From positions 1-54,454 of IMG/VR virus record IMGVR_UViG_3300031974_003269: 54,454 bases of DNA. The stretch is one strand, 5' to 3'. Below, one piece after another: positions 1,965 through 33,300 of the stretch. The number at the start of each line of letters is the position of its first letter. The first letter of the stretch is position 1. Both the position numbers and the translations under genes were made by a program. This DNA is from a virus. Taxonomy: Duplodnaviria; Caudoviricetes. The notes below the pieces were generated by a model. It was given only the letters and a program-made list of their open reading frames with translations. It ran no database searches and had not been told where the DNA came from.

Positions 1965-2133
1965 CGCAATCAAGCCCCCATTCATCAGCCAAAATGTGCT
2001 GGTCAACAGTCGCAGGGTGAAAGCCGGAGGACACGAGCAGTCCCTTGATCGCTTCAAGAGTAGTCAAAATATCTGAATCATCCGGAACATCTGTGGTCAC
2101 GGTAGTGTCTCTATTAATTATCGTTATTCTCAT
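1957..2133 (-). CDS. Hypothetical protein (58 aa)
   Basis: Start chosen at MRITIINRD; overlaps neighbours in a tightly packed operon. Confidence 0.6.
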   Translation of the reverse strand: MRITIINRDTTVTTDVPDDSDILTTLEAIKGLLVSSGFHPATVDQHILADEWGLDCDE

Positions 2134-2967: not shown

Positions 2968-4287
2968 TTATAAAACAGGGTTGAGCTCATCATCATTGAT
3001 GAGGTCCAGATTGTTGAGCTTCTTCCGAACGAGCTGGCAGACACGCATTTCAACCGTTCCCTCAGCAAAGACTATCTTCTGAATTGCAGGAGTCTTAGCA
3101 CCCGCACGATGGATACGACCCAATGCCTGGCGGAAATCTATCGCACTAAAGCTGGGCGAGATAAGAGATACACGCGGATGGTTGCCGTTCTTATCGTGCA
3201 GAGACAACCCCGTACCTCCCGCCTGAATCGTGCAGAGCATGATACGGGCGACATCGTTCTCGAAGCCAAGACATTGAAGCTCGCGCTCCGTTTCTGTCTG
3301 CCCGCCATGAACCATACGAATCTCGCACAGACCAGCCAGACGCTTCAATAATGCCTCCATGCTCTGACGGAAATTTACGAAGATGACAACAGAGTTACCA
3401 TTCTCGTACGCATCCCTGGCAAGATCTTCGAACAATGGAACCTTTAATAATTCCACCTCCTGCCGAGCACGAAGCTGGGCGACAAGCGGGCTGTCACTCT
3501 CATCATTACTCTTCTTCTCCTCAAGCTCCAAAAGCTCATCCTTTAGATCATCATAGATCTGAGTAATATCATCAGCGGCACTAAGATCATAGCCATCAGC
3601 CATGATTAAATTATTGGGGAAGGAGCCGGGGGGCAGATTCGCAATCTTGATCCTGCTCCCCCGTCCTTCCTTATAGATGTGGTCGTGCAGACGCTTAAGG
3701 ACGGATTTAGCGTTACCAAACGTCAAGCCACCGAATACGCCACGCTTACATCCATTCTTTAAGCACCAGCGATACCAACCACGATCATCATGCATATCTA
3801 ACACATAACCAAGGGCACGCATTTCAGTTGGATTAGAACAACTGGTTGCTCCCAAACACAAAATCTTAAGGCCAGCGGTTTTCGCCCGAATCATCATCTT
3901 TGCATTCTCGCTCTTCGCTCCTTTGCATCGATGATCCTCGTCGAAAATCATTAAGACAGCAGCTCGTCTAAGACGCCACTTATCATCACGGTAATACTCT
4001 GTATTTCCGCGACGCATCTTCTCATAGGTGAAGACATATGGCTTCTTATAACCGAACTTCTTAGCCGCTTCCTTCCAACTAGGAACGACAGCCTTAGGGC
4101 ACAGGACGAAGGGCTCAAGTCCAAGGACGTTGGCCACATGCAAAGCGACATATGTTTTACCGGTGCCGGTATCCGATCCATCCTTAGCATACCCATTTAA
4201 GGCGACAGAGGTGACCAGATTACTGGCGTGCTCCTTCTGCCAGTCAAACAGATCCGGGGAAGTACTGAGTTCTGTCTTTGTCGTCAT
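2968..4287 (-). CDS. Superfamily 2 (SNF2-like) helicase
   Basis: DTGTGKT Walker A, DEDH Walker B, GAT motif III, GGTGLSL, QALGRIHR motif VI. Confidence 0.9.
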   Translation of the reverse strand: MTTKTELSTSPDLFDWQKEHASNLVTSVALNGYAKDGSDTGTGKTYVALHVANVLGLEPFVLCPKAVVPSWKEAAKKFGYKKPYVFTYEKMRRGNTEYYRDDKWRLRRAAVLMIFDEDHRCKGAKSENAKMMIRAKTAGLKILCLGATSCSNPTEMRALGYVLDMHDDRGWYRWCLKNGCKRGVFGGLTFGNAKSVLKRLHDHIYKEGRGSRIKIANLPPGSFPNNLIMADGYDLSAADDITQIYDDLKDELLELEEKKSNDESDSPLVAQLRARQEVELLKVPLFEDLARDAYENGNSVVIFVNFRQSMEALLKRLAGLCEIRMVHGGQTETERELQCLGFENDVARIMLCTIQAGGTGLSLHDKNGNHPRVSLISPSFSAIDFRQALGRIHRAGAKTPAIQKIVFAEGTVEMRVCQLVRKKLNNLDLINDDELNPVL

Positions 4288-4645
4288 TTTGTTTTAAAAC
4301 TCCTAGCCAATCGCTCTCCTTTAAACCTTCGCGAAGATTCAATGATCGAATGTGCTTCCACATTTTTCGCAGTGCTTGTTCCTCGATTTGTCGAACCCTC
4401 TCGCGCGTAACTCCCATGATCGTACCGATCTCCTCAAGAGTGTATTGCTTACCTCCCTTGGCGTTGAACCAGATTTCATCGCCATGACGGTCAATAAAAC
4501 TGCGCTGACCAAGCATAAATTCGCGAAGACGAACATCAGCATTAGATGCGTTATCATCATACAAATTGTCTACTTTTTTCTCGAAGGCACTTTTGGTCTC
4601 AGGCGGCGGCTTGATCGCTCTCGCGTATCCTTTTCGCTTCTTCAA
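4244..4645 (-). CDS. Stand-alone sigma-70 region 4 HTH protein (start uncertain: TTG 4645, ATG 4516 or ATG 4831)
   Basis: YTLEEIGTIMGVTRERVRQIEEQALRKM is a canonical region 4.2 motif; no region 2 visible. Confidence 0.8.
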   Translation of the reverse strand: MKKRKGYARAIKPPPETKSAFEKKVDNLYDDNASNADVRLREFMLGQRSFIDRHGDEIWFNAKGGKQYTLEEIGTIMGVTRERVRQIEEQALRKMWKHIRSLNLREGLKESDWLGVLKQNDDKDRTQYFPGSV

Positions 4646-4847
4646 AGACCGACGCGATCCCCGTGTAACCTTTCCGGAGCCGCTGGCTTTCTTTGATGAT
4701 TGTTGTGAAATCTTCGTGGTAGACTTCTTTCGTCGTGAAACGCGTTCCGCAAGCAGGGCATTCGCGGCGTCGTCGAACGTATTTTTTGTTTCCTGCATGT
4801 CTAGTATCCTTGCAGTAGGTTCCGGCTCCACACTTCGGACAGTACAT
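4599..4847 (-). CDS. NrdR-N/Ogr-Delta-like zinc-ribbon protein
   Basis: CPKCG...DTR...RRRRECPACGTRFTTKE; no ATP-cone. Confidence 0.8.
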   Translation of the reverse strand: MYCPKCGAGTYCKDTRHAGNKKYVRRRRECPACGTRFTTKEVYHEDFTTIIKESQRLRKGYTGIASVFEEAKRIRESDQAAA

Positions 4848-6791: not shown

Positions 6792-6927
6792 TACACAGGT
6801 TATACATCGAATAGGCATTGTATCGCAATCGATTGGACTACTTTTTTGCGCATTTATTTGCAAAATACTAGATGTTGTGTATACATTGTTATACACACCC
6901 TAATAATAACTACACACCACATGAATA

Positions 6928-7215
6928 ATGAAAAAGAAAATTGCCCAAAAAAAGAAAGCCGTCGGTCATGCGTCAAAGGTCGAAGGTCGTGAGTCGAAGG
7001 ATATAACCTGTGCAGTAAGACTACCCCGGTCGATGTACGATGCGCTGGATAATTGCGCAAAGCTCAAGAAAACGTCTCTCTCAGACATCATCCGTGATGC
7101 TCTTGTAGCCAAAATGGATGAGGTTCAGGCAGAGGAGCGTGAGAAAATATTGAAAGAGGCTGAATACGAGGCGCGACTACGCGAGCTTGGTGTTGACCCT
7201 CGCAAAACTGCTTAA
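6928..7215 (+). CDS. Ribbon-helix-helix regulator, divergent
   Basis: AVRLPRSMYDALD...SLSDIIRDAL. Confidence 0.8.
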   Translation: MKKKIAQKKKAVGHASKVEGRESKDITCAVRLPRSMYDALDNCAKLKKTSLSDIIRDALVAKMDEVQAEEREKILKEAEYEARLRELGVDPRKTA

Positions 7216-7315: not shown

Positions 7316-7620
7316 ATGTTTCGATTTGGTTTAGTCGGGACAGAACCATTTTCATAAGTCGTTGATATTACATAATCTCGGAAGGCAATATGGTTTTATG
7401 GTTTTATTTATTATATTCTATAGAGTATATATATATTATATAGGGGGAGCAGGAATACATACGGAATACACAAACCAGACCCAAACCAAAACCAAAAACC
7501 ATAAAACCATATTTTTGTTGCAATTAATTAAAATTCAAAGGTTTATGCGTATGGTTTATGTCAAAAACGCCCTAAAATAAACCATTTTTGTTCAAAATAG
7601 AACCTTTTAGAACCTTATTC
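7316..7620. repeat. AT-rich region with AAACC/GGTTT repeats and 19-bp perfect inverted repeat; candidate replication origin
   Basis: AATATGGTTTTATGGTTTT 7387-7405 and its reverse complement at 7495-7513 flank a TATATA tract. Confidence 0.6.
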
Positions 7621-8894: not shown

Positions 8895-8909
8895 CTTTCA
8901 ACACTTTGC

Positions 8910-9323
8910 ATTGTCCTGATCAGATGATGCGGGGACGCTCGTACACAGGTTGCACTGACAGCCTGCGAGCACAAGTTCTGAGTTCTCTTAGCAGAGGCAC
9001 CCTCGAGCTATTGCTGCAATGGGGTGGTCGGGCACGACACTTAGAGGTTTCAGATCAGTATCTTCCATTGCACTCTCATCGCCGAGCTTATGCAAAGCAT
9101 GCGAAGCACCTAGTACAACAGCCATGTGGCAGAGGAACGGCGGACGCATCCCGTAGCGGGGTCGAGAGGTACGGTCATAGGCACTAAACTATGACGCTAA
9201 ATAACTTGTTATTCAGTTTTCCGTTGGAGGTACGGCGAGCGATCGCTTACTCCTCCCAGCAATGTCGCATAAAAGAAGATACTGTTGCTGGATGGCAGGC
9301 TACCAAGCTCCTGCCCCCCACCA
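8910..9323 (+). ncRNA. Large structured non-coding RNA, family not recognised
   Basis: Nested long-range helices (9056-9065/9275-9284, 9066-9071/9259-9264, 9073-9077/9164-9168, 9080-9084/9138-9142) plus many hairpins; G-U pairs favour plus strand. Confidence 0.65.
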
Positions 9324-9340
9324 CTTTCTTCGGTGTTACT

Positions 9341-9368
9341 TGACCTAAGCATGTCACAAAACTGCTTA
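9341..9368 (+). ncRNA. H-type pseudoknot leader element, copy 1
   Basis: TGAC/GTCA and TAAGCA/TGCTTA stems; covaries with copy 2. Confidence 0.7.
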
Positions 9369-9413
9369 TTACTTTTTACACCGAGTCACAACAACACACC
9401 AACCACTATCACT

Positions 9414-9689
9414 ATGGAAACAATACGACCACATAACTGGGTATCAGCTGCTCAATTATTACAGAATACAGAACCCGAAACAGAGTATCCGCTAAAACTA
9501 GACGACGAAGATATCAGCGGTCTCGATGTAGCCTTCGATCTACACAGCCGTTTCGACGCAGCACGAATGGGACACGAAGTATTCGACAACACCATCGACT
9601 GGATACTCGACGGCAAACTCGTACTTATCGACTCCAAAAACGAAAAAGTATGCTGCTGCCCAATGAAATTCAAAAACATCAAACTTTAA
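9414..9689 (+). CDS. Hypothetical early protein
   Basis: METIRPHNW start after ACACACCA leader. Confidence 0.7.
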   Translation: METIRPHNWVSAAQLLQNTEPETEYPLKLDDEDISGLDVAFDLHSRFDAARMGHEVFDNTIDWILDGKLVLIDSKNEKVCCCPMKFKNIKL

Positions 9690-9699
9690 TTTACGCATC

Positions 9700-9993
9700 A
9701 TGAACTGGCATAAAGATACAAACTACTACGGAGAACCTTACGACTTCCGAGGCAAACCAAGACCTATGGACTGGCGAGACATTTTCACACTCGAAGACAC
9801 ACTAAAAAATGTCCGCAAACAGATCAGGCTACTTACAAAATACATTAACTACAAAGCCAATCTCGGTATACAACCAGCAGGTCCGTTAGTAGAAATCCGT
9901 AACAACCTACGCAAAGAAATGAGCTCTTTAGCAACACAAATTAAAAAAGCACGATACGAAGCGTCATCAGTAGAAACAACAGATGACTTTTAA
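9700..9993 (+). CDS. Hypothetical early protein
   Basis: Operon packing and cassette codon usage. Confidence 0.7.
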   Translation: MNWHKDTNYYGEPYDFRGKPRPMDWRDIFTLEDTLKNVRKQIRLLTKYINYKANLGIQPAGPLVEIRNNLRKEMSSLATQIKKARYEASSVETTDDF

Positions 9994-10022
9994 TCAACAA
10001 CACAACAACACAACAACACACC
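9991..10022 (+). repeat. TAATCAACAACAC... intergenic leader repeat (second copy 10248-10280)
   Basis: CAACAACA units ending in ACACACC before ATG. Confidence 0.7.
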
Positions 10023-10025
10023 GAC

Positions 10026-10250
10026 ATGAAAATTGAAAGCATGCAAGTCAGCATCATTAAAACTAACAAACGAGGCGTTAAACAACAACTCTCCGTATGC
10101 ATAAACGACCAATCAACAAACGCAAACCGTTGGGCTATGCGTGAAATGATGCGATGCATAAATCACAACTGCAAATGGCCTGATCTTCACCGACTAGGAA
10201 AAGTATTCGTAAAACTAACATACCCAAAACCTAGCAAATACTGGGACTAA
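10026..10250 (+). CDS. Hypothetical early protein
   Basis: Flanked by leader repeats. Confidence 0.7.
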   Translation: MKIESMQVSIIKTNKRGVKQQLSVCINDQSTNANRWAMREMMRCINHNCKWPDLHRLGKVFVKLTYPKPSKYWD

Positions 10251-10282
10251 TCAACAACACAACAACACACCAACACACCACA

Positions 10283-10405
10283 ATGAACCTACTACTCAGC
10301 ATAATATCAATCGTACTATGGACTTCAATTTTCATAACTTGGCTAAGCATCTTCGCCGTTATGACTTACGAAATATTCTTCAGCTCTAACGATTACGATC
10401 AATGA
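10283..10405 (+). CDS. Small membrane protein (40 aa)
   Basis: Manual translation MNLLLSIISIVLWTSIFITWLSIFAVMTYEIFF...; ATGA overlap with next gene. Confidence 0.6.
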   Translation: MNLLLSIISIVLWTSIFITWLSIFAVMTYEIFFSSNDYDQ

Positions 10406-10980
10406 TCAATTACTTGCAACCTCACGACTACCAACGCTCTGTATCAGAACTATTAGAATTCTTGCTCTGGTGCACTTGCACTGCAGGCAAATCATCTAAA
10501 ACTATCACACCTCGATTCAATGATCTAATCGCTAACAACTCAGCAAAAAATGTCGTCGTATCTCACGGTAACCATATCCGCGGATTACTGCGTAAATACG
10601 GTATCGGTCAATACGAACGACTAACAAAATGCTGGCAACAAATCGGTAGAGGTAGCGTTGACAATATCAAATGCAGTAGCGGTAGTTTTCTAAAACATGC
10701 ACCTCGAGATCATCTTACATTAATACACGGTTTAGGTCTCAAAACAGCATCGTTCTTCATACAATGCACAAGACCACATGAAGATGTAGCTGTTCTCGAT
10801 GTACATATACTTAGATGGCTACAACAAGAGTTCCCTAAATACCCAGTTTCGACTCAGACACCTCAGTGCGAACACGAATACGCACGACTGGAAGCAATGT
10901 TTGTAGGTGCTTCAGCCGTGCTAAAACTAACTCCAGCAGAACTTGACCTACAAATATGGAAACAAAGTTCTCAAAACTAA
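10402..10980 (+). CDS. HhH-GPD superfamily DNA glycosylase/AP lyase, Ogg2-like
   Basis: IHGLGLKTASFF (HhH plus Lys), VAVLDVHILRWL (Asp), ELDLQIW. Confidence 0.85.
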   Translation: MINYLQPHDYQRSVSELLEFLLWCTCTAGKSSKTITPRFNDLIANNSAKNVVVSHGNHIRGLLRKYGIGQYERLTKCWQQIGRGSVDNIKCSSGSFLKHAPRDHLTLIHGLGLKTASFFIQCTRPHEDVAVLDVHILRWLQQEFPKYPVSTQTPQCEHEYARLEAMFVGASAVLKLTPAELDLQIWKQSSQN

Positions 10981-11001
10981 TAACCAAAAACAACACACCA
11001 A

Positions 11002-11376
11002 ATGCTAAACAGACAAAAACTACTACAGTTCATTAAATCTCTACGCGGTCAGATCTTTCAAGTATGCTGGATCAAAAAAGACGGTACACATAGATGTGCT
11101 AATGTACGACTAGGCGTCCACACTAAACGCAAAGGTAACGGCAAAAGCCCAGCTAAATCAGATAACAGTTACATTACTGTCTATCTCATGTGGTCAATGG
11201 ATGGCGACACTTTCAAAGCTGAAAAAGGTTACCGACTCCTTAATCTTGATACAATTACCAGTATCCAAGCTAAAGGATTACATTACGAAATACACCCCGA
11301 ACCAATTGTATCATCAATTGATCTATCGCTCTCGCATGAAGAACAGCCAAACAATGTCGTCGCTCTCTCGGCCTAG
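11002..11376 (+). CDS. SH3/WYL-like beta-barrel phage protein
   Basis: F.V..IKKDGT.R...GYR..NLDTI pattern. Confidence 0.65.
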   Translation: MLNRQKLLQFIKSLRGQIFQVCWIKKDGTHRCANVRLGVHTKRKGNGKSPAKSDNSYITVYLMWSMDGDTFKAEKGYRLLNLDTITSIQAKGLHYEIHPEPIVSSIDLSLSHEEQPNNVVALSA

Positions 11377-11581
11377 TACAAAACACCGCCGATTCTTCTA
11401 TCACTACAACAAAATCAAGAAGTGCTTAACCGTTCACTTCGCAAACAAATGTCTACTAACGGATAACATCACTGTCTTAGTTCCTTCAGAATCTAAAGAC
11501 AACAAATCACAACCGCACAAAACCATTCAAGGTTGGTGCACAAATATCAATCATACAAAACAACACACCATAATATCATGA
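11354..11581 (+). CDS. Conserved phage hypothetical protein
   Basis: RRFFYHYNK...TVHF...C...QP pattern. Confidence 0.65.
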   Translation: MSSLSRPSTKHRRFFYHYNKIKKCLTVHFANKCLLTDNITVLVPSESKDNKSQPHKTIQGWCTNINHTKQHTIIS

Positions 11582-12303
11582 CTTATATACTATCAGGAGC
11601 AAACGAAGTAACATGGGAACAACTCAAATCAATACCAACACCAAAAGCAAAAGGTCGGTGGCACCCAGTCACTCACAAAACTGTTGCCAGTCACATCATT
11701 GGACTCACACAACAACGCGGTCACACCATCAACGAAATTCGTTACGGTATCGACAAATACAACGACATGTTCGGTTACATGCGTCTAAACAACACAAGTG
11801 CAATCGGTAACAATGCAGACAGCGTTCAACAAGTAGTCGGCTTCCGTAACAGCCACAACAAACGATTCTCAGTAAGTGCTGTTGCCGGTTCACAAGTTAT
11901 GGTATGCAGTAACTTACAGTTTCGAGGAGAGCACGGTATGCGTCGTAAACATACCACACATGTTATGCGTGACTTAGGTAATCGCATAAACGACATGCTC
12001 AACGACGCTTTCGGCGAATGGGAAGATACAGTCAAATCATACACTAAATATTCGCTAACACCACTATCAAGCAAAGACGCTGACCATCTTATCATGCGTT
12101 CTGCTAAAGCTGGTGCTATCAACCCATCTGATGTACTCAAAGTCGAACACGAGTTTTACAACCCAACTCATGACGATTTTGCAGATCACAATGCCTGGTC
12201 GCTATTCAATGCTACTACAGAAATTCTTAAGCGTGTACCTACTCAACTTCAGCAAAAGACCATCAAGCTACACAAAGTGTACGATGAGTTCTGCACTGCT
12301 TGA
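11578..12303 (+). CDS. DUF932-like protein
   Basis: HPVTH, GFRNSHNK, VMVCSNL.F, RKHT, AWSLFNATTE. Confidence 0.75.
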   Translation: MTYILSGANEVTWEQLKSIPTPKAKGRWHPVTHKTVASHIIGLTQQRGHTINEIRYGIDKYNDMFGYMRLNNTSAIGNNADSVQQVVGFRNSHNKRFSVSAVAGSQVMVCSNLQFRGEHGMRRKHTTHVMRDLGNRINDMLNDAFGEWEDTVKSYTKYSLTPLSSKDADHLIMRSAKAGAINPSDVLKVEHEFYNPTHDDFADHNAWSLFNATTEILKRVPTQLQQKTIKLHKVYDEFCTA

Positions 12304-12512
12304 ACTATAGTGAAGCTGTAAAGATACTCTGTAACAAATCAAAATACGATAAATCAGAACATCGTCGTGCGTTAGACTTTCTAAAACGCCACAAACAAGT
12401 AAGCCGCTGCCAATACTGTGGTTCTATCAAACACAACACCAACGCAACGCCTTGTTTCCGCTGTCTAACACATCACGCGCATAATCTACACAAACACTAT
12501 GACTTACACTAA
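12300..12512 (+). CDS. Small Zn-finger protein
   Basis: CQYC...CFRC. Confidence 0.5.
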   Translation: MNYSEAVKILCNKSKYDKSEHRRALDFLKRHKQVSRCQYCGSIKHNTNATPCFRCLTHHAHNLHKHYDLH

Positions 12513-13272
12513 CATCAAAAACAAACCGTTACGATGGAGCGTGGGCAATGCAAAGCTATCAAAACGCATTATTCACTTCTCACTGCCTTCAGGTCACTCG
12601 TGTCCAGCTGCACATCTATGCTTGTCAAAAGCTGACATGACCGACGGCACTATCACTGACGGCGAACATACTGAGTACAGATGTTATGCAGCAACGCAAG
12701 AAGCTGCTTACCCATCACTGCGTAAAATACGATGGGATAACTTCCTCGAACTCAAAAACTGTTCACGCAAAAAGATATTCACGAAACTTCGTGCATCTCT
12801 AGCACCATTGCATGCACAGTATATGCTCGACCACGATCAGCGTCCTATAATTCGTGCACATGTTGGCGGTGACTTCTTCAACGAAGCTTACTTCCTAGCA
12901 TGGCTCGACTTAGCTAACGAATACCATCCAACACAATTCTACGCGTACACAAAACGCTTAGACTTATGGGTCAAACACATAGACAATATACCAGACAACT
13001 TCGAGCTTAACGCATCTCGCGGTGGTAAACACGACCACCTAATAGATAAACATAATCTCAAGTCAGCTACTGTAGTATACAGTCATGAACAAGCTAAACG
13101 ACTCAATCTCGAATTAGATCACGACGATTCACATGCATACAATGCAACAGGATCATTCGCTCAACTAATTCACGGCACTCAACCCAAAGGATCTGCTGCT
13201 AGCAAAGCAATATCCAAACTCAGAACAAAATATGGCTGCGTCGGACATCGTGCAAGTACCCCGTCTGTGTAA
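12499..13272 (+). CDS. GP88-family phage protein
   Basis: GNAKL, FSLPSGHSCP, CYA, RAHVGGDFF, FYAYTK motifs. Confidence 0.75.
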   Translation: MTYTNIKNKPLRWSVGNAKLSKRIIHFSLPSGHSCPAAHLCLSKADMTDGTITDGEHTEYRCYAATQEAAYPSLRKIRWDNFLELKNCSRKKIFTKLRASLAPLHAQYMLDHDQRPIIRAHVGGDFFNEAYFLAWLDLANEYHPTQFYAYTKRLDLWVKHIDNIPDNFELNASRGGKHDHLIDKHNLKSATVVYSHEQAKRLNLELDHDDSHAYNATGSFAQLIHGTQPKGSAASKAISKLRTKYGCVGHRASTPSV

Positions 13273-13903
13273 ACAGCGTATAACAAAATTCTTCGCAGGT
13301 ATAACACCTCGCAAGAAACAGCAATACATAGACGACTGGTCACAACTAACACCTCGTAGTAATCACAGTAAACTAAACCGTTGGCGTTTCGCATACTGCA
13401 CAGTGCATACGCCCTGGCTTCGTAGCTGTGAACAATACGATCTAATCAAAAACAAAAACAAAACATCAACATATGACACACTAGTTCAACTACTCAAACA
13501 AACATCAGGTGGCATGTTCACTATCAAAGCTACAGGTATCAATCACCTACAAGAGCTTTGGTCTAAAGATCCATCTATGTTCGAACCAACCTCAGATTGG
13601 CAATCATGGCGAGACAACCTTGCATCAAAGCTAAAGAAGCTAGGCATGGCAAAAACATCATTCGCTATCGAAATGCTGCATCCGCTAAACGCAAACTTGA
13701 TATGCATTGATCGACACATGTTCAAAGCATTCGGATGGCACCGTGTAGACGACTCAGCATCTGTTAAACAATACAGATACTACGAAGACTACTGGCTTGA
13801 TATGTCAGCAGCTTTCAATGTCTCACCCGTTATAGCACGCAACATATTCTGGGACAAAATTCAAAAACAACCTAACTCACTATACTGGGCAAAATACCTA
13901 TAA
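13232..13903 (+). CDS. Second HhH-GPD-like DNA glycosylase
   Basis: KKLGMAKTSFAIEML...ICIDRHM, Y..YE..W. Confidence 0.7.
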   Translation: MAASDIVQVPRLCKQRITKFFAGITPRKKQQYIDDWSQLTPRSNHSKLNRWRFAYCTVHTPWLRSCEQYDLIKNKNKTSTYDTLVQLLKQTSGGMFTIKATGINHLQELWSKDPSMFEPTSDWQSWRDNLASKLKKLGMAKTSFAIEMLHPLNANLICIDRHMFKAFGWHRVDDSASVKQYRYYEDYWLDMSAAFNVSPVIARNIFWDKIQKQPNSLYWAKYL

Positions 13904-13908
13904 CTATC

Positions 13909-14874
13909 ATGAACAATATCGATTACGCTCTCGGTCCAAATTCAATATTCGTATACGACCGAATCAACAATAAACCTATCGAAGTCACAAGCGATCGCGT
14001 TAACTACAAACCTCTTCTTGAAGCTCTACAACGAGGTGTTGAAGAAGAAGTTCTCGAACTACTTGACGAAACGCATGTACTTAATGTTATCAGCGACGGC
14101 AAAGTTGTTGTTAAAAACAACTCTGTATTCTACAACGGTAGAGAACTGCATACAGCAGAAGCTAAAAAGCTAACTGATCTAGTATCAGAAGGTGTAACAG
14201 ACATATCTCGCTGGTGCCGTTTCATCGAACGACTGCAAAATAATCCATCGTACCACTGTCGCAATCAAGCATACAACTTCATTGCACATACAGGTATGCC
14301 AATGACTGCCGATGGCAAACTCATCGGTTACAAAGGTGTACGAGATGATTACCACGACAAATACAGTGGCAAATTCAGTAACCATGTAGGTGCAGAACTA
14401 TCAATGCATCGATCAGATGTTGACGACAATCCTAACAACGGATGCTCATCTGGCTTCCATGTAGGTTCTTACGAATACGCTAACGACTGGGCATCAAGTG
14501 ACGGCAAACTAATGATTGTCGAGTACTGTCCATCAGACATCGTATCAGTGCCTGACGAATCCGGTTACGGTAAACTGCGTGTATGCAAATACAAAGTTAT
14601 ATCTGAGCATGTTAACCGTACTAAACTAAACGACGGTGCATACGGTAACGCACAATTCAACGACAGCGACCTATTCGATTACATAGACAATCGTACAGAT
14701 CAAATAGATGAATTAGGCAGTCTCTACTACAAAGATCTAAAGCAAGAATTTCCAACAGTAACAATGCATGATGTTAAAGACGCTATAGAAATGCATAGCG
14801 AATACCATCTCGATTGTACATGGGACGGCTCTGCAAACGATTACATAATCAGTATGCAATCTCTTCCGTGCTAG
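13909..14874 (+). CDS. rIIB: rIIB-like protein
   Basis: L..NPS, GYKGVR.DY.D..SG...N, M.R..VDDN...CSSGFHVG, DIVSVP, KLRVCKY. Confidence 0.85.
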   Translation: MNNIDYALGPNSIFVYDRINNKPIEVTSDRVNYKPLLEALQRGVEEEVLELLDETHVLNVISDGKVVVKNNSVFYNGRELHTAEAKKLTDLVSEGVTDISRWCRFIERLQNNPSYHCRNQAYNFIAHTGMPMTADGKLIGYKGVRDDYHDKYSGKFSNHVGAELSMHRSDVDDNPNNGCSSGFHVGSYEYANDWASSDGKLMIVEYCPSDIVSVPDESGYGKLRVCKYKVISEHVNRTKLNDGAYGNAQFNDSDLFDYIDNRTDQIDELGSLYYKDLKQEFPTVTMHDVKDAIEMHSEYHLDCTWDGSANDYIISMQSLPC

Positions 14875-14909
14875 GTGCTACACTAGTGCGGTTTTCATAA
14901 TAGTTAAGT

Positions 14910-14937
14910 TGACCTGAGCATGTCACAAAACTGCTCA
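14910..14937 (+). ncRNA. H-type pseudoknot leader element, copy 2
   Basis: TGAC/GTCA and TGAGCA/TGCTCA stems. Confidence 0.7.
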
Positions 14938-14969
14938 TATTAACTACAACACAGCAAAACATATATACT

Positions 14970-24392: not shown

Positions 24393-27300
24393 ATGCCTGA
24401 CAGTTTCCCAGGTTTAGATTTAGGGCAAAAAGACTACAGCCCAGAGGATGAAGACGACATTCTCGGGCTGAATAAGTTTACTAGCAAACCAAGCCCTAGA
24501 AAATTCCAGCCATTTGGCGGTTCTTTGCAGCAGCAAGCTCCAACATTTCAGGAGCCTCAGCAGATAGAGCAACCTCAACAGACAAACGAGTACTACAATG
24601 TTTTTGACGATGCTCAGCTAGGACAGTTCGAGCAGTTAGACAAGATGGCTTCTCTGTCTTCTAAGTATAAATCTAGTGCCGATAAGGTCTACAAGCTTAG
24701 GGAGAAGAACCTAGAAGACTTCGTAGCTAACGATCTAAAACCTTTTTATGACGAGTACGGAGCAGGATTCGATTACAAAGATAATTACGATCAATATATT
24801 TCCGAGCTGCAGGATTTAGAAAAGCAGTATTTTAAACAAAGTAAAAAAGAAGACGGCTTTTTCAGTAGCGAAAGTGATGCTCGAGCTAGCGCTAATCAAA
24901 TGCTTAGTAAGTTTAAAAAATTCTCAGGTAGAAATGGACTACTAGATAGATTTAACCGTTTTAAATCCGAGCTAGATAGATACGGCAAGATCAGAGATGC
25001 CGCGGCTGCGGAGCAAGCTAAGTACGAAGAAGTTTTATTAAGTATCCCGATGCAGGAACGTCTTGCGTTGGAAGAAGGATTAAAAGGTCCTAAAACACGT
25101 AAGTCAAAAAAGCAGGTAAATGAAGCGTTGGACTCGATGCAATTCGAGAAACCTATGTATAATTACTACGACGGTTTGTTAAACGTCGATAAGGTTGACC
25201 CACGCTACAAACCTAAAGTTGATTTCGAGGACGGAAGAACCGCTACACGCCAAGCTGAAAGAATGGATATGGCGTATCGCGGTAAGTTCGAAGGACTACT
25301 ATCACGCCGTGACCAAGTTCTTAAAGATCGTCAGATGCGCGATCGAGGAGTGTTCTTTTCTAGTAACGGTACCGTAGACGGAAGACCGTTTCAACTGTCC
25401 CGAGAAGATGTCGACATCCTCGATTTGAATGACATTCGTAAGACAGGAATTAAAAACTACAAAGGCAAACCTATAGATGAAGCTATTGCAAGTTTAGGAG
25501 GCGAGGAAAGACTTAAAGTAGCTGAATTATTGCAAGCAGTCTTTACCGCATATAGTAATAGAGAAGACCGTCAGATAGCTTACTTTAACAACGGTAAGAC
25601 CGACGCCGATAAAGAAGCTATGGAAAAAGCTAACGAGGCGTTTGAAGGTATTCTTCTACATGCAGCCGATAAAGGTCTTACCGACGAAATAGTTAAAAGC
25701 AATGAAAGCCAAGGTTTTCTAAGTTCAATCACTTCATTTTTTGGGAACGCTATTAAGCGTGGCTGGCACACAAGCGAGTTGGCTGAGTATGCCGACGATT
25801 TCTTTTTGAATAATATGGATGAGACTGCTTTCGAGCAGTTTATTGCCGCAGCGGAGAATTTAGAGCAAGTACCAACCAGTAAATCTTTGCAGAACTTCAT
25901 GGGGTCAGACAGCGACGGTGTTATGGAATCGCTTGGCAACCTTCTGTTTGAAAATCCCGCGGCCATACCTGAGATGTTCGTAGAGTCTCTGGCTTCCTTC
26001 TTACCTACTTATGTAAAGACTGCCCCAGCTACACTAGGTGCTTCTTTTGCAGCCGGCCTACCTTTTGGTGGAGTTCCTGGGGGCATGACAGGTTTAGGTG
26101 TAGGTGCTCGTTTAAACTGGGGTATAGCTTCCGCAGCTATCGAGTATTCTTCGACTATACTAGAGGAAATGAAGGGGTTAGGTATTGATTATAAAAACCC
26201 GAGAGTTTTTATGGCGGCCTGGAATAACGAAGCTACTCGAAACGCGGTCGTCGAAAAAGCGGAGAAGCGTGGTTTAGCTATCGGTACATTAGACGCAATC
26301 GCCGGTATGATGGGAAGCCGAGTTGCAAACGTGCTTCATCACACAGGTAATGCAGCTAAAGGCGGTAAGCTACTAGACTCAAAAGCTTGGAACAGATCTA
26401 AGCTTACAACTCCTAGATTCACCAAGTTTCAACGCGGTAGAAACGCGGCTTTAGAAATCGGAACCGACAGTACTTTAGGAACTTCCGGCGAACTTATCGC
26501 ACAGCTTTTAACTAGAGAAGAGGGTGAGAAGTTAGATTACAACTCTCTCATTGCTGAAGGTATTATTGGCGTAGGTCCTGGTCTTTTAGGAGCAGTAAAC
26601 GAAGTCCGAGGATCTGCCGACGTATCCAATGTACCTTTTGATTTATCAGAAGAGCAGGAAACAGCCACAGGTACTACTGGTAAGATCAGTGCAGCTGGTT
26701 TTAATAACCAGTACAACACTTTCAAGGATGCTCAATCAGCAACAGCGTTTATTATCGAACAAGCTGATGTAACAGGCGACCAGCAAAATGCTTTAGTCGA
26801 CATATTTTCTCGATTGTACGACGCAAACAGTAAAGAGATGTCGAATCTTAAAATTGTTGTAGCTGAACGCACTCCTTTCAAGGACACAGAAAACCCCGCT
26901 TCTTTTCATAACATCGAAGGTCAGAGGGTGATATTTCTTAACAAAAACGCCGTTGGGACAAATCCAGTAGGAGCTTTCTTACACGAGTCCGGACATTTAG
27001 CTCGTTTGCTCATGGGTATAGAAGATTCTAATCTTCTAGGCATGTACGATGCTCTCGGGCAACAAGGCAAACAAGATGCTGCTGCTCAGTACATCACCAA
27101 AAACCACGGCCAGAAATACTCTAAATTAGACGAAACCACCCAAAAACAAGTAGACAAACACTTAGCTAATACAAGACCTACTGAGTTAGCTGATGAGTGG
27201 TTTGCTTATCAATTTGCAAGAGTGCTAACAGGTAATACTGCTGAAAAATCAGTACAGACTCCTTTGCAACAGTTTTTAAAGTCTACTCTTCGACCACTAT

Positions 27301-30300
27301 TAGAAGGTTATGTAGGAACACAAAAAGGTGCTGGTAGTGTAGAGAACCGACTTAAATTAGACAGACAGATCCTTAATTTCATGGGTTACAGCCCTCAAGG
27401 GTTCAAAAACATCACTTTCGGTCAGTACATTACTGAAAGACCTGGCATGAAGTACAACTTCTTTAACGGGGAGAATCGTATATCTCTACTTGGCGATGAA
27501 GAAGGTCTTAATTACTTGATGCGCGAAATACGGGCTATTGCTCGCAAGGATGGTAAAAGCAGAGCTAAAAAAGTAGCTAGAGCTATTAATGGAATGGTCG
27601 GTAAAAATGTATTACCTACCGACGATAAACTTTTTACTGAAACAGAAACAGAAGAGATGTTTCGCCCTATGGCTGAAGCTCAGGTTACAGCCGATGCCGC
27701 AGTAGACACTGCTGAAACTCTTCAAGGCATAGCTGATAAGACAGGCAGTAAAGATGTCCAGGCCGCTGCTGATAAATTAGTAGAGCCTAAAATGACTCCT
27801 CAAAGAAAAGATCTTGAGGATAGGATTTCGAGTACCGAAAACGCTATAGCTGAGGAAAGCAGGAGAAGAAAGTTAAGACAAGGTGAGAAAGACGGCCTCA
27901 ACGAAGAGCTAAAAAAAGCTAAAGATCCTGCAAAGATAGAACAGCTAAAACGTAAAATACAAGCATCCAAGGAGTCTGAGTCTAAACTACAAAAAAGAAA
28001 GGCCGAGTTTGAGGCCGAGCGTGATGCTTTACCCAAAGAGGTACAAGCTAAAGGACAGACCGATATAGATGTTGCTGTTGCACAACAAGCTACTCGTATT
28101 AACGCTCTTAATAAATTTGCAAATAAACAAACAGCCGCGTCTGCAAAAGCTGTAGTTGATAAGATAAATAAGAATCGAGCTCTTTTAGCAGACCAGGACG
28201 CGTTCGAAAAGAAATCAGCTCAGGTACAAGAAACTCTCGTAAATAGATTAAAGGAAAAATACGAAAAAATAGCTAAAGAGGAAGATCGAGAAATCAGAAA
28301 AGAAGATTTGATACCGACCCACGGTCAGATCATTGCAGAGATGTTAGACTTAAAATCTTTAATTAAAGGGTCAGCATTAACTAGCCAAAAAGCTGCAGAT
28401 GATCTTGCCGATATAGTATCTTCAAAAAACCCAGATCCGGACAGAGTCGTTCAAGCTTTCGAAGAGTTTACTAATGAGGTAGAGGACACAATTTCTTTAC
28501 TTGAAGGTAGAGAGACAGAAATCTTAAAAAGAATAGACCAACTTAGCCAAACAGCAGATTCTGCTCTTGGCGCTAAAAAGGTATACAGCCATACCCACCG
28601 ACTAGTTAATATAGTCAATCAAAACACCAAGACTGGTAAGATACAGTTCCGCGAGTGGGACGAGAAAAAGAACGACTGGGGTAAAGTCATAAGTCTAGAT
28701 AAAAAATCAGCTGATATACTTGAATACAAAGGAAACGAAAAGACACTTCAGTATAAACAAAAAGACTACAAGAAGGCTAGCGAAGCCTTAAAAAAGGCTG
28801 GGAAAAAGACTAACTTTTTAAAGTACCGTAAAATCAGTAATACAAAAGCAGCAGATCAAGCTACAAAGAAAGCCTCAGGCAAAACAACAAAAACAAAATC
28901 TGCTGATAAAACCAAAAAAGCCAAAAAACCAGAAATTTCAAAAGAAGCAAAAGCGGAGATTTCGGAGCTTCGTAAAATTCTCACAGTTGTGAGAGACCTC
29001 AAGAACTCAATAGCTCCAGAAAAAGCGGCTATTCATTGGAAAGATATTCCTCACGCTGTGTATTACTACCGAGACGAAAACAAGAAATTGCAGCCGGTCA
29101 CATTAGGAATGTTGGCAGACCAATCTAGTTTGTCTCAAGACGACACGAAACCAAAATTCGATAATTTTTATACAAGCCGTGGAAAGCTTCTCAAAAATGT
29201 AAAAAGAGATCCAGTAGCTTACCTGTGGCAGTTTAGTAATTGGAGAATAGCTAAACCAAAAACTGAAAAAGATACTAAAGACAATAAAGACACTACAGAG
29301 ATACACTGGACTCAAAATAAAAATAAAGTCTTGAGCAACTTTAGTATTGTTAAAGGAGGTTTAGATTACAAGGGGGTTACCTACAACACGGTAGAGGGTG
29401 CTTATCAAGCAAACAAAAGCGGAATTTATGTAGCTGGTTTTGAAAATTTGTCAGGATCTGACGCACAGAAAAAAGCTAGAGCGGATAAAATATCAACAGA
29501 TCTGACTACAAACAGAGCTTTAATGAAAGAGCTCATATCTATTAGATATAAATCAGATTCTGATTTTAAGCAGGCTTTAGACAAAGCTAAAGCTAATATA
29601 ACTCACCCCGTTCAAGATAAGTTTTGGAAAGTAGAATTTCCAAAAATATTAAACGAGGTTCGCGAGGTTAAGCCTGAAGTCCCAAAGCTTACGGATAGCG
29701 ATACAAGTAGGGAAGACGGTGCTGAAATTTCCATGATGCCTATTGAATCAATGTCAGTAGACATTGGAAACGGACAATCTATAGAAATCGATCAAAACGG
29801 TAATGGGGGTATTTACACGACCGAAGATAAGGTAAAGACTCTTGTTTCTGAGGCAACTGACGATCAGATAAAACAATATTTCGGTAAAGAGAAAAGTCTT
29901 CTAATAACCGACATGCGGGCTGGCAAAGCTCCCAACTCACCTGATGTTACTGCTCGTACTATCATAGATCCTGACATTGGGCAGGCTTACAACCCTTACG
30001 AAAATAACGGTAAAATAGACTACGATAAAAAGTTAGATTGGGCAGGCGGTATAACCCAAAGAGAATACTTAGGTATTTTAGATGCTGTGCGTGCATCAGC
30101 CGCTTTAGCCAACAACCAAAAAGGTTCAGGTATTAAGGTCACAAAAAACAAAGACGGCGACCAAGTAGCCCAGCCTGAAAAAATATATTTTCAACCAGAT
30201 AAAGGTACTACACACGTAAGTTTAGCGCTTTGGCGTCAGCGCTTAATGGACCAAAAAAACGGTGACTTTAGAGACCTTACCAGCGGAACTCTTGAAGAGT

Positions 30301-33300
30301 TAAACTTAGCCGAAACAGTAGTTTATGAAGTAGCAGAAGGCAGGACTCTCGAGCTTCTGGACGACAGAGATTTTTCAGGTTACAAGCTTCAACAAGTTAT
30401 GTCTTTGGCCGAACGAAGGGCTGAGCTACTTGCTGCTGACATTGAAAGATTAGAAAAAGAAAAATCTGTTAGAGCAAAAAACAGTAAAGGTGTAGAGGAG
30501 GAGTATTCTTTTGATGAAGCTATACAGCTAAGAAAGAGGAAACTAGCAGGACTTCTTTTTGATCCACACACCTTAGGAGATAAACAAGGCGAGGAGTCGG
30601 GAGGTCTTTTCCCCAAAGTGCACTCAGGTAAGCCTTGGACTTCTGCCTTGGTTGAGTTTCTATTCTACAAAGAAAAAGAGGCTGCTAAAGAAGCTATATT
30701 AAGAAACTGGTCGGATGACCTTAGAGCTAGAGACGGTATTGCAAAACCTAGCGATAAAAACGATCCTTATGGCGATCAGAGTAGAGTGCCTATAATGGGT
30801 TATTTAAAACACCTAGACTCCCCTGAAGTACTACAAGAGCTACAGCGAATCGAGGCTCAGGTCTTCGGACTAAATCAAGAAAGAAGACTTATCGCCGTAT
30901 CAGAGGAAAACCAAAAGAGCTATTTGGATAAAGTAGCTAGAGGAGAGACGGAAGCAGTCCCAGGATACGATGAAAAAGACAAAGCCAAGCAAGCTAGAAA
31001 AGAGGCTATCGGAGACCTTATATTTAAGCTTCTCGAAAAAGATCGGGAGCTCATGGAAGAAGCCAGAGAAGCCTTTGCTGAAGAGTACTCCAAAAAAGCA
31101 CAAAAAAGTAAGACTAGATTTCTTGAAAAGTTGGATATAACTAATCGAAACGGCACTCCTTTTAGTATTGAGGACTATACCTTTTTTCAAGCAGGAGAGC
31201 AGGCAGATGATCTTGTAGGGTCTAGAGTTCGCACTAAAGGAGAGCAGGCTCGCAAGAGGTTTAGGCGAGGTAATGTAGATCTTGGTATTCCTGTACTAGC
31301 TAATTTTATCAAAGCCAGAAAGGACAACGACACACCTTTAGTACTAGAGAAAACAACTCTAGGTTTTAATGAGTTAGCAGATCCCATTAGAGCATACGGA
31401 TATGAGAAGTCGCTCCGTAAAAACGTTAACACTAACCCGCAACCTCCTAATAATATAGAGTCCTTTAGTATGCCTAAAGCTAAGGGTAAAGGAGCCGTTT
31501 CCATATACCGAGAAAACGGTGTCTGGAAGTATAAGTCTACAAAAAGAAAATTAAACCAAAACTCCATAAATCGTGCAAACGAAGCTTACGTAAGCAAGGT
31601 ACTTCAAGATATTGAAAACTATGATACTAAGTTAGCGGAAGGAGCTAAGTCAGATAACCATGTTTCTTTAGCAAACTTTGTTAATTATATACTAGGGAAA
31701 TACTACGAAAACAAAGGTGACTTAGTCACAGCTATGGAGAAGTTAGATCACACAGCTTCTACAGATGCAAAAGGTATTAACAGACAAGGAGCTCCTGGGT
31801 TGGGTCTATTACCAAGCGTGTGGTTTACCTTCATCAAGGAAGCTTACACGTTAATTGGTTACGACTCTTCTAAAATAAGCCCAAAAGCAGATAGCAAATA
31901 CTCGTGGAATTTTGATGCTAAAACTATGTCGTTCAACGGCGAGGTTTTAGAAGGCAACATGTTCAAAGACGGAGTGCCCGACCCGAAAGACATGGCTGAA
32001 ATGGTCAAGCCGATTATACAAGCTGTGGTTGATGCGGGTAGAGTACAGTTCGAGGTAGGTATTGGGTTGGACGAGGATAAAACATCTAAAAATCTAGTTG
32101 CCGGTGGAGAACTCCAACAATTCGACAGTCAACTTTCCGACGCAGCCGAAGACATAGTTGACGCAGTTTACAGTCAAGCAGGTGCCGATACAGGGCAAGC
32201 TGAGAGCTCAGGATTAATAACTCAGGAGGGTTTAGATCAAGATGTAGATACTAGCCAGGATACCCGGATAAACATTAACAAAAGTTTTAAATCAAAAGAT
32301 TTTCAGCTAGAACCTCTCAATAAAGATCCAAAAGTTGTAGAGGAGTTCCAAGATAACTTTGAAGACTACCAGAAACGTATTAGCGATCTACGCAAGGGAG
32401 GGAAGGGCACAACCTTAGCAAAGGTGCTCAAGGAGTTTAAGAACGACCCAGGGTTTTGGAGAATCTTTGGATTGCCGGTGCCTCCTCAGCCGCAGTTTAC
32501 TAAGAAATTAAAAGCTAGCCCAAACTACCCCAGGTTCAAAGAGATTGTACTTGATCCCGACGACCCGCAAGGACCTAAGCCCCCCAAGCCTGGAACCCCT
32601 AAACAACCTCAACCTTCTATACAGAGCATACTAGATAATAGAGGTCCGGTTACATTCTCACTCGGAGCTCGAGTAGTTAATGACGACGACGCTAGTATCT
32701 TCGCTAGAATAATGAATCGAGTCAGCTGGTTTGCTACCGACGTAGCAGATTATTTAGGAGGTAAAAGAGAAAATTTTAAGCTTACCGGAAAAGGTATTAT
32801 GGACTCGTTTGTTGATCAGTCCAGAGCCTCCACTAAAGTATTGCGAGACGCGCTAATAGATGCGGGGGTTACTGACAAGAAAGTATTGGAAGCTCTTGAT
32901 GTGCGTGCTTTGTGGCATCAGTATTTTGGTAAAACAGATGAAGCGGTTAGGCAGGCGGAAATAGAATATATCGAGCCTATTATGGACGCTATGCGAGAGC
33001 ATGACGTGACTAACGAGGAGTGGGGTAGTTACATCACCGCAAGAGCTGTTCCCACAAGAAACATACATTTAGAAAAGTTGTACAAGGGTATGCTTGACGA
33101 GCTCGACCCTACTGATTCAGCAGACGCCAAGACTCGTAAAGAACTCGAGGCTTTCATGAAAAAGTACAAAGGCAAAATGAGCGGTATAGAAACCGCCGTA
33201 GCTGTAGATGTAGTCAAGAAGATGGAAGCTCAGGAAAAATTTAAGAACTTCCTCAACGATAAGCGGAACCCTCTTCAAAAATACTACGACATGAATATGC

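Follow-up and report, generated by a model that had tools for sequence, protein, structure and literature searches.

The leader of gene 32 in the T-even phages carries an RNA pseudoknot that is the autoregulatory site for gp32, an arrangement in which the structure serves one gene and one binding protein. Two copies of another small pseudoknot, 28 nt in length, are present in the DNA analyzed for the current report, a complete virus record of IMG/VR (54,454 nt; estimated completeness 81%) that is referred to here as the window, and the original prediction, made from the letters of this DNA, named the gene 32 leader as their analogue. The analogy holds for structure, since in both cases a small H-type knot lies in phage messenger RNA (mRNA), 5' of a start codon, and is followed by an A/U-rich unstructured stretch. 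It goes no further than that. The family to which the window copies belong differs in its conserved sequence, is found ahead of unrelated genes, of tRNAs and of ribozyme-like cores, and ranges far beyond the T4-like phages; no recognized gp32 gene follows any copy examined, be it the two in the window (which precede a 91-aa open reading frame (ORF) and rIIA) or those associated with 78 downstream proteins elsewhere. The downstream protein in one locus of the family (L006; loci are cited by such numbers) is OB-fold-like by eye only. The element is a conserved fold of RNA, acting on the transcribed strand irrespective of which genes neighbor it and of the host.

Several other systems bear comparison with this fold. 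The frameshifting pseudoknots of the luteoviruses (e.g. beet western yellows virus) are ~28 nt long and share with the element their size class, a 1-nt C loop 1 and an A-rich loop 3 that runs across the minor groove of a short stem 1; in contrast to them, the element is intergenic, has a stem 2 that is longer than stem 1 and is without a slippery site. Pseudoknots of the preQ1-I and SAM-II types have a similar architecture of short P1, 1-nt L1 and A-rich L3. The preQ1-I and minimal pseudoknot aptamers are, like the element, H-type folds of <35 nt in which the 3' loop is A-rich and the loop nucleotides are strongly conserved, whereas the element differs from preQ1-I in having a 1-nt variable junction loop and in not sequestering the Shine-Dalgarno (SD) sequence. 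Exoribonuclease-resistant RNAs (xrRNAs), which block decay in the 5'-3' direction, are known from RNA viruses as larger folds that form a ring, while the known bacterial stabilizers (T7 RNase III sites, REP elements) are plain hairpins; the role proposed below for the element, that of a folded exonuclease block defining stable segments of polycistronic RNA, is like theirs, but the element is much smaller and has a different fold. In the literature searched, no conserved 28-nt knot of the triplex type was found to be credited with such a role in phages. Finally, by the account of Perreault et al. 2011 (PMC3088659), hammerhead ribozymes flank genes in prophages, with the suggested purpose of cutting long phage transcripts into gene-length units. 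Habitat and suggested purpose are thus shared with the element, which these ribozymes sometimes adjoin, but the element has no hammerhead core, is half the size and, where the two are adjacent, lies just 5' of the hammerhead-like cleavage site.

The two window copies match the family consensus and both of its covarying stems, and are composed as follows:

9341-9368, + strand: pseudoknot copy 1, with the 5' strand of stem 1 (S1a) at 9341-9344 (UGAC), loop 1 (L1) at 9345 (C), the 5' strand of stem 2 (S2a) at 9346-9351 (UAAGCA), the junction loop (L2) at 9352 (U), the 3' strand of stem 1 (S1b) at 9353-9356 (GUCA), loop 3 (L3) at 9357-9362 (CAAAAC) and the 3' strand of stem 2 (S2b) at 9363-9368 (UGCUUA)

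14910-14937, + strand: pseudoknot copy 2, with S1a at 14910-14913, L1 at 14914, S2a at 14915-14920 (UGAGCA), L2 at 14921, S1b at 14922-14925, L3 at 14926-14931 and S2b at 14932-14937 (UGCUCA)

Both lie exactly where the original prediction had placed them. As it had also reported, they differ at two positions only (A/G at position 7 of the element and T/C at position 27), which are facing bases of stem 2, such that one A-U pair is exchanged for a compensated G-C pair; the UGAGCA strand of copy 2 is the commonest variant in the family. A degenerate search of the window (up to 3 mismatches) finds exactly these 2 sites, none of 100 dinucleotide shuffles contains two or more matches (mean 0.00), and no third copy was found by a looser structural scan of both strands of the whole record. 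Simple arithmetic gives 10 predicted base pairs among the 378 possible position pairs in 28 nt, so that two random differences would fall on one pair ~2.6% of the time. The decisive structural evidence is the covariation across the family, rather than this single change within the window.

The family was assembled from scans of sequence collections, four of which each yielded at least ~120 loci, with matches in IMG/VR phage contigs and in prophages or mobile elements of very diverse bacteria. The family counts given here cover the matches listed, first 232 distinct instances and later 355, of which 248 are viral and 107 bacterial. An initial scan of viral contigs in which stem 2 was left open uncovered three further types in which both strands of stem 2 are changed (L017, the L006 group and the L003 group); most of its matches had 0-2 of the 6 pairs of stem 2 and were excluded as chance. 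A loop-anchored scan added more members, including one with an extra base pair inside stem 2 (L050), as well as ~ten matches that were excluded as conserved coding sequence without the 5' GACC. When the commonest stem 2 was fixed and the loop left open, at least ~120 loci were obtained, nearly all of which share the loop N-GUC-NNN-AAAC, and the same lower bound applies to bacterial contigs taken as one genome per species. Because search patterns bias whatever they fix, scans were also run with stem 1 free and with the middle of stem 2 free.

Among the 272 distinct sequences found with stem 1 free, the cores of its two strands are GAC/GTC in 157, ATC/GAT in 28, TTC/GAA in 18, GTC/GAC in 17, CAC/GTG in 15, CTC/GAG in 11 and AAC/GTT in 6, with rarer complementary pairs and ~six exceptions making up the rest. 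Covariation was scored for each stem in alignments of 150 sequences plus the window copies, with copy 1 as the first row. The inner pairs of stem 1 (second, third and junction) are formed in 149, 148 and 148 of the 150 sequences, and two of them occur as four pair types: G-C 82, A-U 26, C-G 22, U-A 19 and unpaired 1 for the second, and A-U 86, U-A 52, C-G 8, G-C 2 and unpaired 2 for the third, the junction pair being C-G in 147. The whole structure is 94.3% paired in this stem-1-free set, as compared with 80.9% in shuffles, and its covariation score (0.314 versus 0.073) was reached by 0/500 shuffles; sliding the partners by 1-3 columns lowers pairing to 23-41% (23-43% over both sets). With stem 2 free, its three variable pairs are formed in 147, 145 and 135 of 150 sequences (162, 160 and 147 in a set of 165), each as 5-6 pair types, and the covariation score was again reached by 0/500 shuffles. 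The outermost pairs are weaker, being formed in 101-111 of 150 sequences for stem 1 and in 90-108 of 150 for the U-A/U-G pair of stem 2. Since both stems covary strongly when left free in the search, the element is an H-type RNA pseudoknot in which the outermost pair of each stem is optional, and we regard this structure and its action at the RNA level as nearly certain. The stems are those that the original prediction had drawn, and they covary across hundreds of independent sequences; examination of the family for copies that break the pairing, or that would act as a DNA promoter, favors pairing in RNA.

The same variation bears on the idea that the element works as DNA, be it as a host or phage promoter, an N4-type hairpin promoter, the operator of a protein or a linker for recombination between modules. 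Both window copies begin with TTGAC, which is -35-box-like, the window encodes a protein with sigma-70 region 4 as well as a 3859-aa polyvalent virion protein, and instances of the element mark mosaic junctions between otherwise unrelated flanks. However, TTGAC is not conserved, stem 1 varies freely while staying complementary to the loop, and pseudoknot pairing that tolerates G-U pairs would be meaningless in duplex DNA. There is no sigma-70 -10 box at 16-18 bp, and the element of L017 ends 16 nt before an SD-led start codon. The hairpin promoters of N4 have a 3-nt loop, as compared with the 11 nt enclosed by stem 2 of the element. Covariation largely refutes a DNA-level element, for which we see hardly any likelihood.

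The consensus can be written as N-NNC / C / U-RRR-CA / N / GNN-N' / NN-AAAC / UG-YYY-A. Stem 1 comprises 4 bp and stem 2 comprises 5-6 bp, the 5' strand of the latter being rich in purines. Loops 1 and 3 are 1 and 6 nt long, and the junction loop L2 is one nucleotide without conservation (A in 52%, U in 36%). The junction C-G of stem 1, the C in loop 1, the first nucleotide of stem 2 (U), its closing C-A/U-G pairs and the terminal AAAC of loop 3 vary hardly or not at all, and altogether ~17 of the 28 positions are invariant across phages of unrelated hosts. The idea that stem 2 opens with a stop codon was dropped, as the purine rule U-R-R-R-C-A accounts for it.

Invariance of this degree is at a level typical of aptamers and, together with an architecture resembling that of the preQ1-I and SAM-II type pseudoknots, might point to a small pocket (the loop 1 C, the loop 3 AAAC and the junction pairs) for a ubiquitous metabolite, an ion or a conserved protein (a ribosomal protein, RNA polymerase or a nuclease), the element then being a riboswitch- or operator-like regulator or a decoy. 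One instance (L053) would even be freed as a small RNA from between two tRNAs. We nevertheless consider an aptamer rather improbable: no pathway unites the downstream genes, the ribosome-binding site (RBS) is not overlapped by an expression platform, L2 is unlike the ligand-reading loop of preQ1-I in being a single unconserved nucleotide, no Rfam riboswitch is matched even at E = 10, and copies present at 1-3 per genome would make a poor sponge. The covariance model of preQ1-I (RF00522) gives no match at E up to 10 in 101 nt around copy 1 or in five loci, and no queuosine genes were recognized downstream of the element, where the genes are diverse and represent no single pathway.

The bacterial carriers of the element include Lactobacillales, cyanobacteria, Patescibacteria/Saccharibacteria, a phytoplasma, Bacteroidota, Planctomycetes, actinomycetes, proteobacteria and others. 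Among cultured phages it is found in Lactobacillus phig1e, L. helveticus phages, Staphylococcus StB12, roseophage SIO1 and related cobaviruses, phiEcoM-GJ1-like coliphages, two crAss-like phages and Arthrobacter phages. Genomes that carry the element have 1-3 copies. In one bacterial family it occurs in 16/301 genomes, at 1-2 copies each, as compared with 0/301 for a control with the reversed pattern, and the E. coli genomes scanned gave no match. When the neighbors in bacterial loci were compared with PHROGs, phage or mobile-element genes were found to adjoin the element in 8/12, among them genes for portal, minor head, scaffold and major head proteins, an integrase, an anti-restriction protein, a nicking Rep, a ParA-like protein and a primase. 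This company, and the sporadic occurrence in host genomes, indicate that the element belongs to phages and other mobile DNA, and not to host chromosomes proper; its wide spread over unrelated hosts would fit a mechanism that needs no host-specific partner.

Some loci are unusual. Spacers of CRISPR-like arrays contain the element sequence in L213 (~2446, +) and L279 (1772 and 3033, +; twice in the array), and hosts thus appear to target this conserved sequence of their phages. An element variant abuts a tRNA-Ile gene in L404 (~7509, +), a contig labelled as a metagenome-assembled genome of a giant virus. Tandem or close copies ~35-60 nt apart, some with altered loops, are seen in L182, L236/L257, L025 and L163, and three element-like copies lie within ~650 nt in L230 (minus strand, ~1784-2455 in reverse-complement coordinates) and also in L214, L233, L249 and L265. 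In these Lactococcus/Pseudolactococcus loci the first copy is without a complementary 3' strand of stem 2, a tRNA-Leu lies between copies, and a 17-codon ORF with its own SD ends on a UGA inside the second copy. The Escherichia phage Rtp (L305, 1300-1660) has a sigma-70-like promoter, ~170 nt of non-coding RNA and a degenerate element with a 4-bp stem 2, followed by a tRNA ~60 nt further on.

In the sets of 232 and then 355 instances the element is nearly always intergenic and oriented like its neighbors, the upstream flanking gene being on the same strand in 152 cases versus 24 on the opposite one, and the downstream gene in 142 versus 15. Upstream ORFs of 80 codons or more are present in 284 of 355 instances. 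The distance from the end of their stop codon to the element is 5-6 nt in 73 and 3-9 nt in 124, a distance of 0-2 nt is seen in none, and in 8 instances the stop codon is a UGA inside the element. The mRNA in the entry channel of the ribosome is about as long as this gap of 5-6 nt, and the knot would therefore lie as close to the stop codon as it can while remaining folded beside a terminating ribosome. Luteovirus pseudoknots are likewise positioned 5-7 nt past the decoding event, which here is the stop codon. A stimulator of frameshifting or readthrough was rejected, as the extensions past the stop are short (median 15-20 codons in the 5- and 6-nt classes) and the spacing alone fits; no shared slippery motif is present in the 65 contexts listed.

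Spacing is also tight toward certain features on the 3' side. A tRNA gene on the same strand follows the element in 28/355 instances, at a distance of -1 to 7 nt in 22 of them and of 11-13 nt in another 4, while tRNAs upstream of the element number only 3 and none is on the opposite strand. An ORF ends 4-19 nt upstream of the element in 22/25 of the tRNA cases checked, and most of these cases are arranged as ORF, stop, 6-9 nt, knot, 3-7 nt, tRNA-Asp. In three bacterial loci (L183, L228, L255) a ribozyme core lies directly 3' of the element, the 6 nt past the element being part of its stem III, and cleavage would fall 6 nt past the knot if the cores, which were assigned by eye, are correct. We call these cores hammerhead-like because their Rfam scores are below threshold: none of the three loci has a hammerhead at the gathering score, and the only match in L183, to HH9, has 20.7 bits versus a cutoff of 52. 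Elsewhere, L006 has a type II hammerhead (Hammerhead_II, 37.5 versus 37 bits for the gathering score) at 1982-2047 (+), ~400 nt from its element and beginning 2 nt past the 122-aa ORF that follows the pseudoknot.

Given the gap of 3-7 nt to the 5' ends of tRNAs and of 6 nt to the hammerhead-like cut, the RNA upstream of the cut would end in the knot plus a tail. Such a short tail would offer 3' exonucleases no grip. The explanation that we favor, tentatively and at somewhat less than even odds, is that the element is an autonomous boundary or roadblock in polycistronic phage RNA, resistant to nucleases and ribosomes, a function suggested by its placement.

The association with ribozymes might also mean that the element is itself catalytic, either as a tiny self-cleaving ribozyme (or part of one) or as a mark for a host endonuclease that cuts in the tail. 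Its core is strongly conserved, the prophage intergenic regions in which it resides are the habitat of hammerheads, which flank genes there (PMC3088659), hammerhead-like cores follow it directly in L183, L228 and L255, and a Hammerhead_II is 400 nt away in L006. No Rfam ribozyme is matched, however, and where cleavage is called for, a separate cutting device accompanies the element (a tRNA with RNase P, or a hammerhead-like core), which suggests that the knot would not do the cutting. To our knowledge, 28 nt is also far below the size of any known class of self-cleaving ribozyme, and we think it quite unlikely that the element is catalytic or a processing signal.

The 8 nt 3' of the element are U/A-rich and G-poor throughout the family. 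At least 5 U are present there in 112/355 instances, as compared with 24/355 and 16/355 in control windows, and TTTT runs just past stem 2 number 94 and 143 per 10-nt bin over a background of ~25. Such U-tracts, one of which follows copy 1, are what might be expected of a pseudoknot-assisted intrinsic terminator or attenuator, in which stem 2 and the U-tail end a fraction of the transcripts and the knot stabilizes a weak hairpin. The minimum distance of the element from the stop codon would also suit a terminator, which must fold beside a terminating ribosome, and a ribosome halted on that codon could modulate termination. On the other hand, about two thirds of the instances have no U-tract, the stem has just 5-6 bp with an 11-nt loop, and a terminator consensus scan calls neither window copy a terminator. 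The canonical terminators found just past the element in L003 and L208 would be redundant, and termination would be counter-productive where copies precede tRNAs (at 3-7 nt), hammerhead-like cores, or scaffold and capsid genes. A role of the element in termination thus appears unlikely to us.

Features that follow the element could instead point to a function for the downstream cistron, as a 5' stabilizer after upstream cleavage, a translational enhancer, a standby site or an insulator of the RBS. SD-like motifs peak 2-30 nt downstream (57, 56 and 34 per bin versus ~15), the next start codon most often lies 15-35 nt away, the window copies lie 45 and 32 nt before start codons, and ~15/232 instances head a transcription unit. 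Moreover, four Firmicutes phages or prophages have the element after a minor head (MuF-like) gene and ahead of those for scaffold and major capsid proteins, a position that would fit the boosting of abundant products. Some instances are followed by an extended -10 promoter; no general downstream hairpin was found, the mean minimum free energy (MFE) of the next 60 nt being -8.8 versus -7.7 for shuffles. However, cleavage in the tRNA and hammerhead-like contexts would part the element from what follows, 11/232 instances stand at convergent operon ends, and the spacing to the upstream stop is far sharper than that to the downstream start. Flank sharing likewise favors linkage to the upstream side (39 instance pairs share the upstream flank only versus 13 the downstream flank only, or 11 versus 6 independent groups). 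We therefore give a downstream-cistron element a low probability as well.

The original prediction had offered a translational operator, a compact riboswitch and a 5' stabilizer that blocks nucleases as possible functions. Most of the 78 downstream proteins have no shared family, the largest groups having 10 and 6 members, and because the downstream genes are mutually unrelated, neither a gene-specific operator nor a riboswitch dedicated to one pathway is supported; many copies, moreover, precede tRNAs, hammerhead-like ribozymes, terminators or promoters. The blocking of nucleases is still plausible, but the contexts point to protection of the 3' end of the upstream RNA at least as much as to a 5' stabilizer.

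If the element is a boundary or roadblock, a mechanism along the following lines might be envisioned. The invariant nucleotides of the loops and junction would form minor- and major-groove triples, and thereby a compact, very stable, triplex-like knot that acts in cis as a structural boundary within the polycistronic RNA. The knot would be placed as near to the upstream stop codon as a terminating ribosome permits and right before a point at which the RNA is cut or ends, be it the 5' end of a tRNA (RNase P), a hammerhead-like ribozyme, a U-tract or an A/U-rich tail. After the cut it would be left as a 3' cap with a short tail, bringing 3' exonucleases to a halt, and it might also block decay or ribosomes arriving from either side, with the result that neighboring cistrons are insulated from one another. 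The surroundings of the window copies, against which this scheme can be compared, are the following:

8895-9340, + strand: ORF-poor, G+C-rich stretch of 446 nt 5' of copy 1, the "large RNA" of the original prediction

9369-9413, + strand: tail and leader after copy 1, with a U-rich start (UUACUUUUUA), then C/A-rich, to the ATG at 9414

9414-9689, + strand: 91-aa ORF 3' of copy 1, its ATG at 9414 being 45 nt past the copy

13909-14874, + strand: rIIB-like gene 5' of copy 2 (phrog_609, E = 5e-54), its stop 35 nt before the copy

14866-14899, + strand: terminator-like hairpin and U-run over the rIIB stop (hairpin at 14866-14891, 9 pairs; called by consensus scan only)

14938-14969, + strand: leader after copy 2, 32 nt, A/U/C-rich, to the rIIA start codon

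14970-17051, + strand: rIIA-like gene 3' of copy 2 (phrog_612, E = 7e-88), its ATG 32 nt past the copy

Both distances to a start codon (ATG 9414 and ATG 14970) agree with those given in the original prediction, and its recognition of the second downstream gene as rIIA is borne out by the match to phrog_612. The 91-aa ORF matches no PHROG or Pfam family, and its 9369-9413 leader has no obvious SD sequence. The stretch at 8895-9340 has an MFE of -152.7 kcal/mol (z = -1.9 versus shuffles), matches no Rfam family and has no similarity to the other family loci compared; copy 1 stands at its 3' end, the same position that the element has in L003. Copy 2 begins ~11 nt past the U-run of the terminator-like hairpin. 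As a boundary, copy 1 would cap the non-coding stretch, and both copies would head the gene blocks that follow them (9414 onward and rIIA onward). The phage has no megablast match in the phage collection, and no relatives of its rIIA protein were found in viral contigs.

Several observations weigh against a boundary or roadblock. The window copies themselves depart from the commonest layout, in that copy 2 lies 35 nt past the rIIB stop and the terminator-like hairpin, and copy 1 lies past a 446-nt non-coding stretch. There is no upstream cistron to protect in the ~15/232 instances that head a transcription unit with a divergent upstream gene, nor is there an mRNA to protect where the element of L053 lies between two tRNAs. 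Ahead of the scaffold and capsid genes of Firmicutes phages, a 5' stabilizer or a role in the translation of abundant products is at least as plausible. The Lactococcus/Pseudolactococcus group retains the 5' 24 nt of the element without the complementary 3' strand of stem 2, and the ~17 invariant nucleotides could equally be explained by a pocket for a ligand or protein, or by catalysis. Finally, stem 2 by itself has a modest energy as a nested fold (-5.4 and -7.7 kcal/mol), and tertiary stabilization of the knot is assumed.

The window has other features that might be of interest in their own right. The last 21 nt (7195-7215, +) of the ORF at 6928-7215 look like a shortened element, with a 5' TTGACC and a 3' CAAAACTGCTTA and the middle absent, and could be a relic or chance. 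An A/T-rich non-coding region at 7380-7570 (+), at a divergent gene boundary (minus-strand genes end near 6896), contains runs of short AACC/AAAACC-type repeats and may be an origin or a regulatory region. The 3859-aa ORF (24393-35972, +) lies between the terminase region and the portal gene, and its sole domain is LPD38 ("large polyvalent protein"), near the C-terminus. At 4244-4831 (-), among minus-strand replication genes, a 195-aa protein is encoded that contains sigma-70 region 4 (E = 2.4e-11), and a phage that has such a protein may direct its own use of promoters.

The search of Rfam and of phage genomes that the original prediction had called for thus revealed a very large family of copies and no match to a family of Rfam 15: none is found at the element in the window at the gathering score, and none at E up to 10 for the element in five loci and the 101-nt slice, self-cleaving ribozymes and RAGATH motifs included. 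Literature searches by motif string or keyword gave no description of the 28-nt motif, the string matches being primer coincidences. It may be among the 8495 unnamed candidate RNAs from IMG/VR that are reported by Fremin et al. 2023 (PMC10690425). The element seems to be undescribed, and there is a fair chance that it represents a new functional class. We consider it possible, if doubtful, that it is a pan-bacterial class of phage and mobile-element RNA without a name, either as a partner-free 28-nt triplex that acts as a universal roadblock (a counterpart to the xrRNAs, and mainly a 3' cap) or as the smallest natural core of an aptamer or ribozyme. In either case, few structured RNA motifs of phages that are absent from Rfam would be as widespread.

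For structural work the element offers an unusually clean minimal pseudoknot in which both stems are proven by covariation, and its heavy conservation is compatible with a ligand, a protein partner or catalysis, each of which would, if true, make it a new class of RNA. If the element is a boundary, it might be put to use as a simple marker of transcript boundaries in the annotation of uncultured phage genomes, and as a small, apparently host-independent insulator or stabilizer part in the engineering of operons. A single 28-nt module would then explain how transcripts are partitioned into units of separate fate in phages as different from one another as marine podoviruses, Firmicutes siphoviruses, crAss-like phages and the phages of Patescibacteria.

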